A DNA stretch of 64,000 nucleotides from Myxococcota bacterium (GTDB lineage Bacteria; Myxococcota; UBA4151): positions 132 through 64,131 of the forward strand of contig JAYZBQ010000059.1 of the NCBI GenBank assembly GCA_036338695.1, written 5' to 3'. The notes beneath the pieces were generated by a model. That model ran no database searches and was not told where the DNA came from. It saw nothing but the letters and a program-made list of their open reading frames with translations. A program made the position numbers and the translations under genes. Below, piece after piece: positions 8,427 to 17,167 of the stretch. Every line of letters starts with the position of its first letter. The first letter of the stretch is position 1.

Positions 8427-9209
8427 GTGACGCTCTGGCGGTTGTTGGTGATGGCGTGCATGTTGGGGACGACAGCCTGCGCCAAAGAGGTCGTGCAGCA
8501 CAATTTGAGCGAACGACAAGCGACGCAGATCCAGGTGCTGCTCGAGAACGCTGGGATCGAGGCGGTCAAGGTGCGAGATCTTAAGGCGCGTACACCCAGC
8601 TTCTCTATTGAGGTGAGCCCAGGGGAGGCGAGTAAGGCGAGGCGCTTGTTGGTCCGTCATGACCTGCCGCGCCGCGAGAGCCGGGGAATGTCCGAGACCT
8701 TCTCGGCCGACCCAGGGTTGATCCCCACCGCCATGCAAGAGCGGGCGCGGCTGATCGCTGCGCTCTCGGGTGAGGTCGAGAAGAAGCTGCGGATGGTGCC
8801 GGGTGTCGCAGACGCACACGTGACCGTGGTGTTACCCGAAGACGACCCACTGCGTGACGTCGACGCGCCGGCGGAGCGGGCCACCGCGTCGGTCGTCTAC
8901 CGCTACCTCGTGAAGTCGGAAGCTGGCGAGAAGCCCCCGCTTGACGAGGGGGACTGTCGCTCGTTGGTCGCTGCGTCGATTCCGGGCTTGAGCCCGAATG
9001 ATGTCGTTGTCGTCGCCCGGCCAGCCATCGCTGATGTGTTTGAGAAGGTCGAGGGTGACCCGACCGTGAGCTTCCTTGGTGTCCGCGTCCATCCGAGCAG
9101 TCGGGGGCGTTTCCGCGCGGTGGTCTTCGGTCTGCTCGGCGTCTCGCTCCTGAGCTTAGCCGGTTTAGGCCTCGTGGTGATGCGACGGCGGCGAGAGGCG
9201 TCGGTGTGA
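8427..9209 (+). CDS. sctJ: Type III secretion inner-membrane ring lipoprotein (SctJ/YscJ family)
   Basis: Lipobox ...TTAC, HNLSERQATQIQVLL, GLIPTAMQERAR, LRMVPGVADAHVTVVLP, ASVV, SIPGLSPNDVVVV, C-terminal TM followed by RRRR. Confidence 0.85.
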   Translation: MTLWRLLVMACMLGTTACAKEVVQHNLSERQATQIQVLLENAGIEAVKVRDLKARTPSFSIEVSPGEASKARRLLVRHDLPRRESRGMSETFSADPGLIPTAMQERARLIAALSGEVEKKLRMVPGVADAHVTVVLPEDDPLRDVDAPAERATASVVYRYLVKSEAGEKPPLDEGDCRSLVAASIPGLSPNDVVVVARPAIADVFEKVEGDPTVSFLGVRVHPSSRGRFRAVVFGLLGVSLLSLAGLGLVVMRRRREASV

Positions 9210-10105
9210 GTGATCCTGCGCGCGACGCAGCGCTCGTCTGGGCGGTTGGGACGCGCGGGGGATTAGGTCATCTCGAGGGGTTACCTCCCGAGCGAATCGA
9301 GCAGCTAAGCGAAGCGGTACAGAAGGTGCTCGATCTGCCCCGCGAGCAGCGCGTCGCCTTCGCCGGGCGAGAGGCGCGGCGGCTGAGTGCCTCGCGGCTA
9401 CGTCGTGGCCTCGAGGGCATCGACCCGTCCTGGATCGTCGAGGCGCTGCGCGGTGAGGAACCCCATGTGGTGGCTGCTGCCCTGGTCTACTTGCCGACGC
9501 CAGTCCGTCGCACGGTCGTCAAGCTCCTGCCCCGCAAGGTGCGTGAGGCGATGCCCGACCGGAAGACGACGGCGAGCGTGGAGCAGCTCTGGCTGGTTCG
9601 CTGTCGCGACGTTTTAGACCGCCGTATTCAGACGCTGCTTCCGGACCTTCAGCGAGGCGCACAGATCGACGTGGCGGCGCTGGAGCTTCGGCTGCGTGCG
9701 CTGGGCCGGGTCGAGGCGGCGCTTGGCTTGTACCGAGTCGGCCGCTCAGCGCTCGCTCGCTTTATCGCCACGATGGAGCCAGAGGACCGAGCCTTGGTGC
9801 AAGAGGAGCTGAAAGCAGCCGACACGATGGAAGACGTTCGCGTGGAGCGTGCCGAGCGGTTCTGGGGGCGCGGCGCAGGCGTTGATCAAAAGGCAGACGA
9901 TCTCCACCTGCGGGCAGGGCTTTGGCAGCTCGCACATGTTCTGATCGTGGAGCGTTATGCGGCGCATCTGCGCAGCTACTTCTTGTACCTTCCGCGCCGT
10001 TGGGTGCAAGAGCTGGAGCTGATGACGGACAAGGTGCGCGAGCCGGAGGAGGGTTTTGCTGAGCGCCTGCTCACACACCTCGACTGGCTCCCAGGGGATG
10101 CATGA
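9206..10105 (+). CDS. T3SS-associated helical protein, FliG/SctK-like
   Basis: Coupled to sctJ by a GTGA overlap. IDPSWIVEALRGEEPHVVAAAL resembles the FliG-M EHPQ / SctK region. Position between sctJ and sctL matches SctK. Confidence 0.55.
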   Translation: MSDPARDAALVWAVGTRGGLGHLEGLPPERIEQLSEAVQKVLDLPREQRVAFAGREARRLSASRLRRGLEGIDPSWIVEALRGEEPHVVAAALVYLPTPVRRTVVKLLPRKVREAMPDRKTTASVEQLWLVRCRDVLDRRIQTLLPDLQRGAQIDVAALELRLRALGRVEAALGLYRVGRSALARFIATMEPEDRALVQEELKAADTMEDVRVERAERFWGRGAGVDQKADDLHLRAGLWQLAHVLIVERYAAHLRSYFLYLPRRWVQELELMTDKVREPEEGFAERLLTHLDWLPGDA

Positions 10106-10641
10106 TGGCGAGGATCATCAAGGCCGCGAAAGGGGAAGCCGAGCCGAGCCGAGCGCAGGTGGCGCGGCGTGTCGAAGAGGCCGAGGAGCAAGCTGAGGCT
10201 TTAGTACGCCAGGCTGGGCATGAAGGCTATGAGCAAGGTCGCCAGGAGGCTCAGGGCATGCTGGATCAAGTCCAAGAGCTCGAGCGGCAGCTGATCGAGC
10301 AGACGGATCGACGGATTCAGGGGGCCGCTCAGACCCTTGTCGAGGACCTCTTGCGCGCCGAGGTCGCTGACGCGGACGGGTTCCTCGATATGATCAGGCA
10401 CAGCCTGCGCGCCATGCGCCGCGGGCGCGAGATCTTCCTGAGGGTTCACCCGGACCGAGCGCAGTATCTTCAGACGCACCGTGACAGCCTGGTCGCCGTG
10501 CTCGGTCGGGCGCGGACGATCGAGATCCGAGAGGACATCTCGCTGGCGCTCGACGGCTGCGTCGTGGAGACCGACGCCGGCGTGCTCGACGTTGGCCTTG
10601 AGACGCAGCTAAGCGCTTTGTTTGAGGGGGTCGACCGATGA
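10102..10641 (+). CDS. sctL: T3SS stator, FliH/SctL family
   Basis: [10 protein letters not shown] (GxxxG repeat), [32 protein letters not shown]. Confidence 0.85.
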
Positions 10642-12479
10642 GCTATCGCCGCAGTCGGGTGATCCCACGCGCTGAGGTCGAAGAGGGCGCTCGCCTGGGT
10701 GTCCTGCGTGCACGCGCCATCGACCGGGCGCGTGTGATCTTGGAGCGCGCGCAGAACAGCGCCGAGCAGATGCGTCAGCAGCAGCGCGCGCAAGCCGCTC
10801 AAGACACCGAGGTCGAGGCGGGGCGGCGCTTGCTCAAGGCGCTGATTCAGCGTGACACCACCCTGAAGTCGAGTCGGGTGACGGTCGAGCAGATCCTAAG
10901 CGAGGCGACGCAGCGCGTGATCGGACGCAGCGAGCTGAGCCCAGAGGCGGTCGCCACGCTCGACGAGCGCCTCAGTGAGCTTCAGCGGCGTGATCGTGCC
11001 ACGCTGACCCATCCTGAGGAGGACGCACCTCGGACGCAGCCGTGGTTTGATCCGCGGCCGGACGCACAGTGGCGCATTGCGTACAACGACCTGGACTTTG
11101 AGCTCGGCGAGCTCACCAGCGAGGAGGTGAACGAGGAGGCTGAGTCCGGATTTCAGACCGGGCTTCCACGCCTGGCGGATGTCGTGCGTACGGCGCGCCC
11201 TGTTCGCCTGCGCGGCGCAGTCCACGAGCTCACGGGGCTGGTCTTGCAGGCCTCCGTGACGGGGGTGCGCATCGGTGAAGTCTGTGAGGTGAGCGACCCG
11301 GACTCGGGCCGCGTGATCACCTGTGAGGTGGTCGGCTTTCGGGGGAACTTGGTGATGCTGATGCCACTCGGCGAGGCCTCGGGGATCGGGCCGGACTCTG
11401 AGGTGGTTCCGACAGGGCGGCCGCTTGAGGTGCGCGCCGGCTGGGGCCTCTTGGGGCGCGTGCTGGATGGCTTAGGGCGCCCTATGGACGGTGGTCCCGC
11501 GCTTGAGAGCGTCGATGGCTTGGAGCCGTGGTCGATCGATCGCACGGCGCCTGACCCGCTGACCCGAGAGCGAGTCTCCAAGCCGATCTCCATGGGGATC
11601 CGCGCCATCGATGGACTGCTCACGGTAGGAGAGGGACAGCGCATCGGCGTCTTCGCTGGCTCCGGCGTCGGGAAGTCAACCTTGATGGGACAGATCGCAC
11701 GCAATACCGAGGCGGAGGTCGTGGTCGTCTGTCTGATCGGCGAGCGTGGCCGCGAGGTCCGCGACTTCATCGAGGAGAGCCTCGGTGAGGAGGGCATGAA
11801 GAAATCGGTCGTCGTCTGCGCAACGTCCGATACGCCGTCGTTGGTGCGCCTGAAGTCAGCGTTTGTTGCCACGGCGATCGCCGAGTGGTTTCGCGATCAA
11901 GGAGCCAAAGTGCTGTTCATGATGGACAGCTCGACGCGCTTTGCCCGTGCGCAGCGGGAGATCGGACTGGCGCTCGGTGAGCCGCCCGCTCGACAAGGCT
12001 ATCCGCCGTCCGTGTTTGCCCAGATTCCGCGTTTGATGGAGCGCACGGGCAATTCAGCGCTGGGCTCGATCACGGCTTTGTACACGGTCTTGGTCCAAGC
12101 GGGCGATATGGAGGAGCCGATCGCCGATGAGGTGCGCGGGATCCTCGACGGGCACATTATCCTCAACCGCGACCTCGGCGCCCGCAATCACTGGCCGGCG
12201 ATCGACGTGCTGCCCTCGTTGAGTCGCGTGATGAACGGCATCGTCGACGCCGAGCATCGCACCGCTGCTGCTGCGCTGCGAGAGGTGTTGGCTGCCTACG
12301 AGAAACAGCGCGATTTGATCTTACTCGGCGCCTACGAGTACGGCTCGGATGACGCAACCGACTACGCCATCGACCGGATCGAAGAGGTCGAAACCTTCCT
12401 GAGGCAAGGGACGGAAGAGTCGCAAATTCTCGGCGCGACGCGTGAGGACCTTGTCCAGCTCTTCGCTGATCGGGTTTAG
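10638..12479 (+). CDS. sctN: T3SS ATPase (SctN/FliI) with a fused N-terminal SctL-like helical domain
   Basis: Walker [56 protein letters not shown]. About 170 extra N-terminal residues (SRVIPRAEV...[16 protein letters not shown]). Confidence 0.92.
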
Positions 12480-12481
12480 CG

Positions 12482-12958
12482 ATGGCGGACGCCTATCGGT
12501 TGGCTGCGCTGCTCAAGCTGCGCCAGCGCGCCCGGGAGGAGGCTGAGCAACAGCTCGCCGTCGCACAGTCGGCACAGAAAAAGGCGGAGCAGCATGTCGA
12601 GGCGGCGCAGAAGTTTGAGGCTGCTTGCCGCGCACGCGTCGAGGAGGCGAAGGCGCAACTCTACGCCGGCGAGGGGCTGACGATCGGCAAGATTCAGTCG
12701 CGCGAGCAGTACATCAAGAGGCTGGTCGCCGAGCTGGAAGAGGCGCTCGAGGCGGTGGCGCAGGCGGAGCGAGCGCTCGAAGCGGCGCGCCAGCAGGTCC
12801 GCGAGGCCAACGCCGCCATGGTCAAAGCAAAGCAGGACGAAGAAGCCCTGATCAAACACCGCGAGAAGTGGGAGAAGGAACAGCAAGTGATCCAGCGCCG
12901 GCGAGAAGAGGACGAGGCGGACGACATCGCGCAGACGCTCTGGCGCAGTAAAAAGTGA
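12482..12958 (+). CDS. sctO: T3SS stalk, SctO/FliJ family coiled-coil
   Basis: YRLAALLKLRQRAREEAE...LIKHREKW...REEDEADDIA, immediately after the ATPase. Confidence 0.8.
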   Translation: MADAYRLAALLKLRQRAREEAEQQLAVAQSAQKKAEQHVEAAQKFEAACRARVEEAKAQLYAGEGLTIGKIQSREQYIKRLVAELEEALEAVAQAERALEAARQQVREANAAMVKAKQDEEALIKHREKWEKEQQVIQRRREEDEADDIAQTLWRSKK

Positions 12959-13200
12959 GACCTTGGTGGCTGCTCGTCTGGACGCTCGTCAGCTGCCGCT
13001 GTGAGCGAATCGAGACGATCTCGGTTGCAGCGCCGATGGGCGAGGAGGCAGGCCCGAGCGCAACCATCCCGAGCGCTGCGCAGCCACCCGTACCCCGGCT
13101 GGATCGTTTGGTCCACGATGAGGCGAGCGTCGAGCGCAGCGTGCGTGCGCTCAAAGGGATGGGATTAGGCCGTTTGATCGATGGGGGACCGACGCCCTAG
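12955..13200 (+). CDS. Small putative exported/lipoprotein at the end of the T3SS-like operon
   Basis: GTGA overlap with the sctO stop and hydrophobic N-terminus MRPWWLLVWTLVSC. It overlaps the prmC 3' end by 36 nt. Confidence 0.4.
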   Translation: MRPWWLLVWTLVSCRCERIETISVAAPMGEEAGPSATIPSAAQPPVPRLDRLVHDEASVERSVRALKGMGLGRLIDGGPTP

Positions 13201-16059: not shown

Positions 16060-17088
16060 CTATTTATCGTCCGGTGTGGGGGGAGCGGGCGCCGGGGCGG
16101 GCTCCGGCTGGGGCGCAGGCGCTGGGGCGGGCGCCGGCGTGGGAGCAGGCGCTGGCTGCGCAGCGGCGGGCGCAGCGGGTGCTGCCGGGATCGGCAGCGC
16201 GATGGGGGCCTTGCGGAGGCGCTCGGCGGCGGCGCTGGTCTTTACGCTGCCTGCGGCTGCTGCCGGGCGCGCCGCTTTCTTCTTCTTCTGCGCTTTCTTA
16301 CCGACAGGGATCCGCCACCAGATCGACAGCTGCGGCAGGAAGTCGGCGTCCGGTCGTCCTTCGGGAGCCACGCGATTCATGGGGATCCAGAGCGGGTTGT
16401 AGAGTACGGCGACGCCGATACGTGTCGATTGACCGATCGCTCGGAGGTATTCCATTTTCCCTGTAAAGGTGGGGAGCGGCTCAAGGACTGAGCCGTTGTC
16501 GAGCGTGGTCCCGCCGACTGGTAGGGTGTAGTGCACCTGCAAGGCGACCGCGCTGTAATCGTCGATGACGCGCAAGTAGTCGACGTCCACCCACGGCTGG
16601 TTCACGCCAAAGCGGAGGATGTCCTCGGCTTCGTCCTGGCGCATCCCGGTGATCCCCTTCGTCGCCGCCCGATAGCCCGGCGAGACGGACAAGAAGGTCC
16701 CTTTGTTGACTTTGATGGTCATCGGCATCGAGATACCAAGGACCGTGTAGTCTTGATTTTGACCATCAAAATCGGGTGAGTAGACGAGCTCAGGCGCTAG
16801 CGACAAGATGAAGTTGGGCGTGTTCACCATGCGTGACTTGATGCGCATGTTGGTGATGCCCGTCATGAAGAGCAGCAGCGAGCTCTCGATGGTGAGGTCG
16901 TCCGTGAGCCCAAAGGCCGAGTTACGCCGAATCATCTGAGGCGAGAAGTAGCTCGCCACCAAGGGGAACAAGAAGCTGTCCTTCTCGAGGGTAGCCGCCG
17001 AATTGTAGACGAACGGTCGGTCGTAGCTAAAAGCGGGTTGAATCGGCTGTGCGGCGAGCGCGAGGCTAGCGATGAGGGTCGGCGTCAT
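16060..17088 (-). CDS. Putative outer-membrane beta-barrel protein with Lys/Pro/Ala-rich C-terminal tail
   Basis: Start ATG 17088 with GGAG RBS, signal-like N-terminus, alternating amphipathic strands, C-terminal (PA)n run. Confidence 0.6.
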   Translation of the reverse strand: MTPTLIASLALAAQPIQPAFSYDRPFVYNSAATLEKDSFLFPLVASYFSPQMIRRNSAFGLTDDLTIESSLLLFMTGITNMRIKSRMVNTPNFILSLAPELVYSPDFDGQNQDYTVLGISMPMTIKVNKGTFLSVSPGYRAATKGITGMRQDEAEDILRFGVNQPWVDVDYLRVIDDYSAVALQVHYTLPVGGTTLDNGSVLEPLPTFTGKMEYLRAIGQSTRIGVAVLYNPLWIPMNRVAPEGRPDADFLPQLSIWWRIPVGKKAQKKKKAARPAAAAGSVKTSAAAERLRKAPIALPIPAAPAAPAAAQPAPAPTPAPAPAPAPQPEPAPAPAPPTPDDK

Positions 17089-17167
17089 ATGAAGTCTCCG
17101 TAGGGGCACGCTATCAGCGGTGACCGGCTCGATCAACGCCTACGATGGGTGCGCGGGCGCAGAGTCC

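Follow-up and report, generated by a model that had tools for sequence, protein, structure and literature searches.

A stator-like domain joined in frame to the type III secretion ATPase in a class of uncultured marine Myxococcota

The ATPase of flagella and injectisomes constitutes, with its stator, a FliH2-FliI-type unit, which exchanges between the cytosol and the machine. Rotary ATPases feature heterodimeric peripheral stalks: E/G in the A/V type, b/b′ and a b-delta fusion in some of the F type. We know of no rotary ATPase where the stalk is fused to the catalytic subunit itself. FliH/SctL has been described as homologous to b plus delta (Pallen 2006, as cited in a passage of PMC9114704); in the section of the same source dealing with FliH2-FliI, two FliH C-domains, in different conformations, bind two different FliI sites, so that the ancestral stator homodimer was already asymmetric. 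Here a T3SS (type III secretion system) locus is described, where an SctL-like stator domain, indicated as SctL′, and the ATPase SctN are encoded by a single open reading frame (ORF), directly downstream of a free sctL gene. The locus lies in a stretch of 64,000 nucleotides from a Myxococcota bacterium (assembly GCA_036338695.1, contig JAYZBQ010000059.1, positions 132 to 64,131), hereafter the window. Its main elements, in window coordinates and with protein positions in amino acids (aa), are:

10102..10641, + strand: free sctL, 179 aa (PF02108, PF06635); orthologue of M. xanthus SctL, as judged by sequence
10638..12479, + strand: fused sctL′-sctN ORF, 613 aa, in a single frame; start ATG in overlap with the stop TGA of sctL, located upstream (ATGA)
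10638..11111, + strand: SctL′ domain, aa 1-158 (PF06188); helix, short strands, shortened C-domain
11112..11153, + strand: acidic linker, aa 159-172; predicted disordered, nearly neutral evolution
11154..11222, + strand: ATPase N-terminal helix and Arg-rich segment, aa 173-195; canonical stator-binding region by alignment
11223..12476, + strand: SctN/FliI-type ATPase body, consisting of beta-barrel, Walker-A core and C-terminal domain (PF02874, PF00006, PF18269)

The locus shares with FliH2-FliI and (SctL)2-SctN the same families (PF06188/PF02108 and TIGR01026), a long coiled-coil stator, the ATPase helix with its Arg cluster, the sctL-sctN-sctO order and, if the heterodimer proposed below holds, two stator chains per ATPase. 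It differs in that one stator chain is here covalent with the ATPase, and the two chains appear to be paralogs with complementary degeneration, not a homodimer. Another close described system is the Myxococcus-type needleless non-flagellar T3SS (Myxo group of Abby & Rocha 2012; T3SS* of M. xanthus): the nearest ATPases are from Myxococcota, with 63-76% identity over the ATPase part, and the local order is the same, with a protein featuring a FliG-like N-terminus, followed by sctL, sctN and sctO. In M. xanthus (L128), however, sctL (223 aa) and sctN (437 aa) are separate; with respect to it, the class to which the window genome belongs features an extra, fused copy, a shorter free SctL and T3SS genes distributed over several loci. 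Full-text searches, with most subscription journals outside their reach, led to no paper on a naturally occurring fusion of stator and ATPase, nor on SctL as a heterodimer; the parts of Abby & Rocha 2012 dealing with Myxococcales systems (PMC3459982) mention no such fusion.

The 613-aa frame runs without a stop from 10638 to 12479, as reported by a sequence-only reading, made earlier by a model from the letters of the window. Residue 188 of the fused protein aligns with FliI residue 24 and EscN residue 34, so that the extension over a normal ATPase amounts to about 155-165 aa. Residues 173-613 constitute a complete ATPase of SctN/FliI type, with an F1-like core, a beta-barrel, a T3SS-specific C-terminal domain and a hidden Markov model (HMM) score above cut-off (TIGR01026, FliI/YscN subfamily of NCBIfam: 562.5 bits, cut-off 379.5). 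Pfam locates ATP-synt_ab_N at 199-260, ATP-synt_ab at 320-529 (PF00006, 293 bits, E 1.2e-87) and T3SS_ATPase_C at 536-605; Walker A is GSGVGKS (aa 341-347), and solved T3SS ATPases in the PDB match this part at E 1e-124 to 1e-83. The TIGR02546 SctN score (602.2) is marginally below its cut-off of 604.75, and FliI_clade2 scores 585. The context favors the non-flagellar type, with sctJ and sctO among the neighboring genes and, located apart in the genome, a flagellar cluster and a FliH-FliI pair belonging to the flagellum.

The acidic stretch quoted in the sequence-only reading as the joint between the two parts corresponds to residues 155-171 (nucleotides 11100-11150), and indeed joins the N-domain to the ATPase. 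AlphaFold2 models of the N-domain predict a helix at about 11-95, a second at 102-118 and three or four short strands at 121-157, followed by disorder at residues 159-179 (predicted local distance difference test, pLDDT, <50). Past the linker, ATPase aa 173-195 correspond, in PDB alignments, to FliI residues ~10-30, a helix/Arg region whose stator-binding function is discussed in a passage of PMC9114704. In this segment 17 of the 20 positions 174-193 (T174 ... G193) are invariant in 9/9 full-length orthologs, and the rate of non-synonymous change (dN) within the genus is 0-0.02; amino-acid identity of the linker, within the genus, is 0.21-0.36.

Several observations concern the reality of the frame. 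From one end of the ORF to the other, G+C at the three codon positions shows the same high-low-high pattern. Twenty public runs, belonging to 14 studies of metagenomes (marine, seawater, estuary, salt-marsh), contain a 1.1-kb stretch including the junction, and contigs from four independent studies cross the fusion junction: X2 and X3 cover 10400-11500, gap-free and with 2-3 substitutions, X7 (10775-11337) and X8 (11046-11360) have 0 differences from the window. The only insertion among the junction contigs, at position 11273, is found in one 270-nt contig of depth 2 with loose ends; the indel or stop near the junction, which the sequence-only reading had indicated as a possible refutation, is absent from the independent assemblies. 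Within the genus, dN is 0.2-0.5 for the N-domain and 0.03-0.045 for the ATPase, i.e. non-synonymous change is 5-10 times faster in the N-domain. The ratio of non-synonymous to synonymous rates, omega, where computable within the genus, reaches 0.65-0.72 in the linker, against 0.15 in the helix and 0.02 in the ATPase; the synonymous rate (dS) is saturated in most within-genus comparisons, and N-domain dN is far below saturated dS. The fusion is real and is kept under purifying selection, and the fused ORF is not an assembly artefact.

The class of the window genome includes, in the collection used, six genomes of uncultured marine bacteria, from one family and two genera. In 6/6 the fused domain is contained in an open frame of 588-649 aa; fusions of equal length in relatives, for which the sequence-only reading had proposed a search, are found throughout the class. 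A word-index search with residues 1-190 found 13 proteins. Seven of them are full-length and come from other assemblies, of metagenomes: six have 613 aa, and one has 618 aa and 38% identity in the N-domain. The others are fragments at contig ends or, like P0013, calls laden with errors. P0013 itself (459 aa) and P0003/P0004, database proteins with an apparent start in the linker or an early end, contain local scrambles with respect to the 613-aa forms, e.g. MMDEPRALPAAQ; they have the look of assemblies with frameshifts or chimeras rather than of short isoforms occurring in nature.

Outside the class, the loci encoding the nearest ATPases were analyzed, with one genome per species: 80 loci, nearly all labelled Myxococcota/Myxococcales, 5 of them from the class. 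The fusion is found in none of the 75 non-class loci. The N-domain, searched across 401 sampled genomes of the phylum, returned the six class genomes only, besides 12 weak matches outside the class (E 0.003-0.009). Among the listed T3SS-ATPase frames of this sample, 21 have at least 537 aa. None of the 16 fetched is fused, each of them being read-through, rich in G+C, that precedes a normal start located ~165 aa before Walker A; this check drew on the listed part of 484 T3SS-ATPase matches, of which 334 are unlisted. A search with the free-SctL alignment for longer, fused forms found none, a result rated by the tool as weak evidence; one of a representative library with the N-domain gave 7 matches, mostly fragments of the same protein, and a contig scan of genomes with a single N-domain sequence gave 0 confirmed cases. 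Among the loci analyzed, the fusion is restricted to the class.

The N-domain is related to SctL by several profile comparisons. PF06188 (HrpE/YscL/FliH) matches residues 4-150 with E 1.6e-6 (28.6 bits) in the context of the whole 613-aa protein and with E 5.6e-8 (33.3 bits, cut-off 23.5) when the N-domain is isolated; 6 of the 8 N-domain orthologs are matched at E <= 0.1. TIGR02499 SctL matches the N-domain alone with E 8.6e-7 (29.2 bits). An HMM built from the first 165 alignment columns was then run on all six-frame open segments of the 80 loci. In 35 of the 75 non-class loci it matches a separate frame directly upstream of sctN (E 1.3e-9 to 1e-2; below 0.001 for 22), encoding ~223-290 aa with no Walker A, whose residues ~35-165 align with HMM positions 4-127; in the five class genomes, the match is in the Walker A frame. 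Since this HMM finds the standalone sctL upstream of sctN in relatives, the fused domain is taken to be a diverged SctL. P0019, a standalone protein of 197 aa, is 37% identical to the N-domain over residues 24-133. The SctL/FliH likeness claimed by the sequence-only reading is borne out by two independent HMMs and by this match to standalone SctL of relatives. On these profile comparisons, the N-domain is homologous to SctL, as a shortened, fast-evolving paralog, not a copy of the neighboring free SctL.

The free SctL is, in turn, a clear orthologue of M. xanthus SctL by sequence (BLASTP E 9e-17, via the C-domain). It scores 39.9 bits with PF02108 FliH (cut-off 24.1) and 29.6 with PF06635 T3SS_SCTL (cut-off 23.3), and its top PDB match is FliH 5b0o_E (E 0.049). 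Both copies were aligned with five standalone Myxococcota SctL (L098, L060, L115, L063, L128) in an alignment indicated as A5. In the standalone proteins, N-terminal motif 1 (GKVIK) comes first, then a linker of ~20 aa and motif 2, (K/R)xPIIERE, which immediately precedes the coiled coil; next are the long helix, an IIGxxL motif and the C-domain. The free SctL retains motif 1 (ARIIKA) and the entire C-terminal ATPase-binding domain, and misses ~37 columns, comprising linker, motif 2 and helix start. SctL′ misses motif 1 and linker, and retains motif 2, the long helix, RVIGRSEL and the '..HP' strand; its C-domain is short by ~20 columns, the conserved end ...GC..ET..GT.DA.L.TQL being gone. Its HMM matches end at 162 of 191 and 144 of 166 model positions: a complete C-terminal globular ATPase-binding domain is not found in SctL′. 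According to this alignment, the losses in the two copies are complementary. RIIK in the free protein and RVIPR in the fused one, which the sequence-only reading had equated, align with two different N-terminal motifs of standalone SctL, and are not equivalent.

The presence in standalone Myxococcota SctL of two tandem aliphatic/basic N-terminal motifs, GKVIK and, ~25-30 residues on, (K/R)xPIIERE, is an observation in itself; to our knowledge, for OrgB and FliH a single adaptor peptide is described. The SPOA-binding adaptor peptide of OrgB consists of aliphatic/basic residues ahead of the coiled coil (Notti et al., in a passage of PMC4443714). Motifs 1 and 2 resemble it, as aliphatic/basic strings before the coiled coil, and either may bind SctQ.

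The ability of the two copies to pair was evaluated by a two-chain prediction of SctL′ (1-172) with the free SctL, accompanied by three controls and limited to the mixed pair. The ipSAE values are 0.77, 0.77 and 0.76, against 0.00 for the best control; 116 of 157 solved complexes attain the mark used for this score, as do 2 of 215 mismatched pairs. The runs share at least 90% of the contacts, and partner pLDDT is at least 83. The predicted interface is an in-register parallel pair of helices, involving SctL′ 20-118 and SctL 15-100, plus residues 149-154 with 166-173. The prediction with the 10102-10641 protein, proposed in the sequence-only reading, passes its controls, and the formation of a parallel coiled coil by SctL′ and free SctL is supported as a prediction.

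The explanation we favor, to which a probability of roughly 0.6 may be assigned, is that duplication of the stator led to an obligate heterodimer, one of whose chains is tethered to the ATPase. In the ancestor of the class, a small one within Myxococcota, sctL would have undergone duplication, with SctL′ fused in frame to the N-terminus of SctN and the other copy remaining as a free gene directly upstream, probably coupled in translation to the fusion through the ATGA overlap (an ATGA/GTGA overlap of the free sctL stop with the fused start is found in 5/5 orthologs). The two copies would then have shed complementary parts, the C-domain of SctL′ being reduced to a remnant because the 14-aa acidic tether holds SctL′ on the ATPase. 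SctL′ and free SctL would form a heterodimeric spoke of the stator, paired through the parallel coiled coil; the intact C-domain of the free SctL would bind the invariant helix/Arg cluster at the N-terminus of the ATPase, and both stator N-termini would reach the SctQ/FliG-like platform. The (SctL)2-SctN heterotrimer would thus become a heterodimer of SctL with SctL′-SctN, still featuring two stator chains per ATPase, one of which is unable to dissociate. The sequence-only reading had anticipated a tethered half of a heterodimer and a 1:1 stoichiometry: this ratio fits free SctL and ATPase, total stator chains staying two, and the heterodimer is at the stage of a prediction. From the data presented we infer heterodimer formation, stoichiometry and function in a dispersed Myxococcus-type non-flagellar T3SS.

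Pairing could also occur between SctL′ domains, linking two ATPase protomers, with a free SctL homodimer bound as usual to the ATPase N-terminus; this would imply three stator chains per ATPase or an altered spoke geometry. Canonical SctL/FliH are homodimers (as stated in part of PMC9114704), the C-domain of the free SctL is complete and the ATPase retains both canonical binding determinants. Yet the complementary N- and C-terminal losses are hard to explain if each copy is self-sufficient, the prediction, run on the mixed pair, passes its controls, and six paired fused domains would presumably force 3-fold, not 6-fold, spokes. Such an arrangement is considered unlikely, although it is the most credible of the alternatives.

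Slightly less probable is a view of the N-domain as mainly a built-in regulator, folding back to suppress ATPase activity or hexamerisation until docking, instead of a spoke. According to passages of PMC9114704, FliH keeps the ATPase activity of FliH2-FliI suppressed, and hexamerisation is under the control of the extreme N-terminus of FliI; the shortness of the linker (14 aa) would also fit. The 85-residue helix and the motif preceding the coiled coil are, in contrast, typical of platform-binding stators, and the pairing predicted with free SctL involves the full length of the N-domain. A regulatory role is, in any case, compatible with the tethered heterodimer and does not exclude it.

A normal-length ATPase might be produced as well, by internal initiation or by cleavage of the linker, the fusion being one of two isoforms. 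Internal starts are known in T3SS genes, as reported for SpaO/SctQ in a section of PMC4443714, and in the window the GTG at 11127 (codon 164), indicated by the sequence-only reading as a possible start, is preceded by GGAGG. This GGAGG, however, abuts the GTG, leaving no workable spacing for a Shine-Dalgarno motif, and neither a start nor an SD-like motif is found there in the 4 other orthologs; more generally, in the window and in these orthologs the linker contains no conserved in-frame start with a usable Shine-Dalgarno motif. The single conserved in-frame internal start, codon 183, falls within the invariant ATPase helix, and the linker sequence is unconserved: production of two isoforms is quite improbable. 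Least credible of all, to the point of being negligible, is the joining of two genes by a frameshift error in assembly or annotation: although the window comes from a 99-contig assembly and the database protein P0013 begins in the linker, the contigs of four independent studies agree without gaps at the junction, the frame is kept in 6/6 class genomes and in 7 further full-length proteins, and P0013 has several local frameshift-like scrambles with respect to other proteins.

A number of results weigh against the tethered heterodimer, or against its premises. The TIGR02499 score of the N-domain is far under the curated cut-off of 78.7. The sequence-only reading had described the N-domain as resembling the upstream SctL, which stands at the level of the family and fails in the direct comparison of fused and free proteins (hhalign probability 0.2, BLASTP E 64); with M. 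xanthus SctL, BLASTP E is 27. The PDB profile search of the N-domain gives just E ~1-2, for ATP-synthase b and V-type E subunits; Foldseek finds no match to its model at E <= 0.001, and ESM Atlas scores are 0.78-0.80 (<0.9), to be considered as leads only. These sub-threshold PDB and ESM Atlas leads point to ATP-synthase b, E and G stalk subunits. Because PDB, Foldseek and ESM Atlas are all below threshold, part of the N-domain HMM signal could reflect coiled-coil composition. The complex score, given for the mixed pair, expresses model confidence only and may partly reflect memory, since FliH dimers are already solved. Full-length AlphaFold2 modelling (9 sequences) reached pLDDT 47, with the ATPase part unusable, and gives no view of SctL′ on the ATPase. 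RNA runs X19 and X20 contained just 0.17 and 0.06 of the junction-stretch words, giving no evidence of expression. Finally, a complete machine is not demonstrated in the window assembly (93.6% complete), because no second FHIPEP (SctV) was found there, flagellar FlhA only being present. In the five other class genomes a second FHIPEP (SctV-like, 708-741 aa) is located alone beside an FHA-sigma54 activator (e.g. L034 11124-13280, L035 8458-10581).

The genes flanking sctL and the fused ORF, listed below, complete an operon with the order sctJ, 299-aa protein, sctL, sctL′-sctN, sctO, small lipoprotein-like ORF. Housekeeping genes, on the opposite strand, lie on either side of this operon, whose synteny is kept in both genera.

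8427..9209, + strand: sctJ, lipoprotein of the inner-membrane ring; opens the five-gene operon (PF01514 YscJ_FliF, E 1.7e-18)
9206..10105, + strand: protein of 299 aa, in the place taken by sctK in injectisome operons; aa 72-127 weakly resemble the FliG middle domain
12482..12958, + strand: sctO / FliJ-like central stalk (PF16789 YscO-like, E 1.3e-15; TIGR02473 FliJ, E 2.3e-9)
12955..13200, + strand: small lipoprotein-like ORF, 81 aa, with L-x-x-C-R-C; closes the operon in genus 1

For sctJ, TIGR02544 SctJ (E 2e-37) is under its curated cut-off, and synteny is kept in L029-L032. In the 299-aa protein, the segment at aa 72-127, GEEPHVVAAALVYLPTPV, matches PF14841 FliG_M with E 0.0017, below cut-off; a profile of 5 orthologs, compared with the PDB, has FliG in all the top 5 matches (E 0.028-0.5). 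The protein is also 33% identical, over 90 aa (E 0.002), to the N-terminus of a 720-aa protein encoded upstream of M. xanthus sctL. The protein may represent, in an early-branching T3SS, an intermediate between FliG and SctK. The 81-aa ORF, which overlaps the sctO stop and whose L-x-x-C resembles a lipobox, has no family match; it is present in 4/4 genus-1 loci aligned, with invariant C14-R15-C16 and a conserved DEASVER...LGLG, and may encode a small T3SS-associated lipoprotein. The remaining non-flagellar T3SS genes are scattered, with a second sctU at C74:15543-16559 and a third FliMN_C protein at C45:3756-3959.

Taken as a whole, the evolutionary picture, to be regarded as tentative and slightly short of even odds, is that of a homodimeric stator, already asymmetric, which duplication and complementary degeneration turned into an obligate heterodimer, one chain being permanently on the ATPase, with, given the FliG-like protein, an intermediate platform architecture. 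A likeness to rotary ATPases may be seen, by analogy, in a duplicated stalk that becomes two different chains, of which one is fused to a head-binding module, sequence similarity being sub-threshold. If the evolutionary picture is true, the lineage would be a natural experiment, where a type III secretion machine works with no stator-ATPase dissociation, and would offer a test of whether the ATPase must leave the stator for secretion. It would have a direct counterpart in the E/G and b/b′-delta stalks, as a case of subfunctionalisation mirroring those heterodimers, and, with the FliG-like protein at the SctK position, a sorting-platform architecture intermediate between flagellum and injectisome. 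A naturally stabilised stator-ATPase complex of fixed stoichiometry may also ease purification and imaging. The locus adds to the little-studied early-branching T3SS of Myxococcota.

Flagella are unusual in cultured myxobacteria. The window genome contains, at C76:55000-75000 and C48:430000-446950, a complete flagellar set (MotAB, FliLMNOPR, FlhBA, FlhF/FleN-like, FliA, FlgFGAHI) and separate flagellar FliH (273 aa) and FliI (444 aa); genome size in this lineage, labelled Myxococcota, is 3-4 Mb. Elsewhere in the window, at 16060-17136 on the - strand, a 358-aa ORF with no Pfam match features a K-rich stretch, then a low-complexity PAPAPAP/AAPAAPA tail at its end; it is followed by a 217-aa lipoprotein-like ORF, and both are syntenic in L029, L030 and L033.

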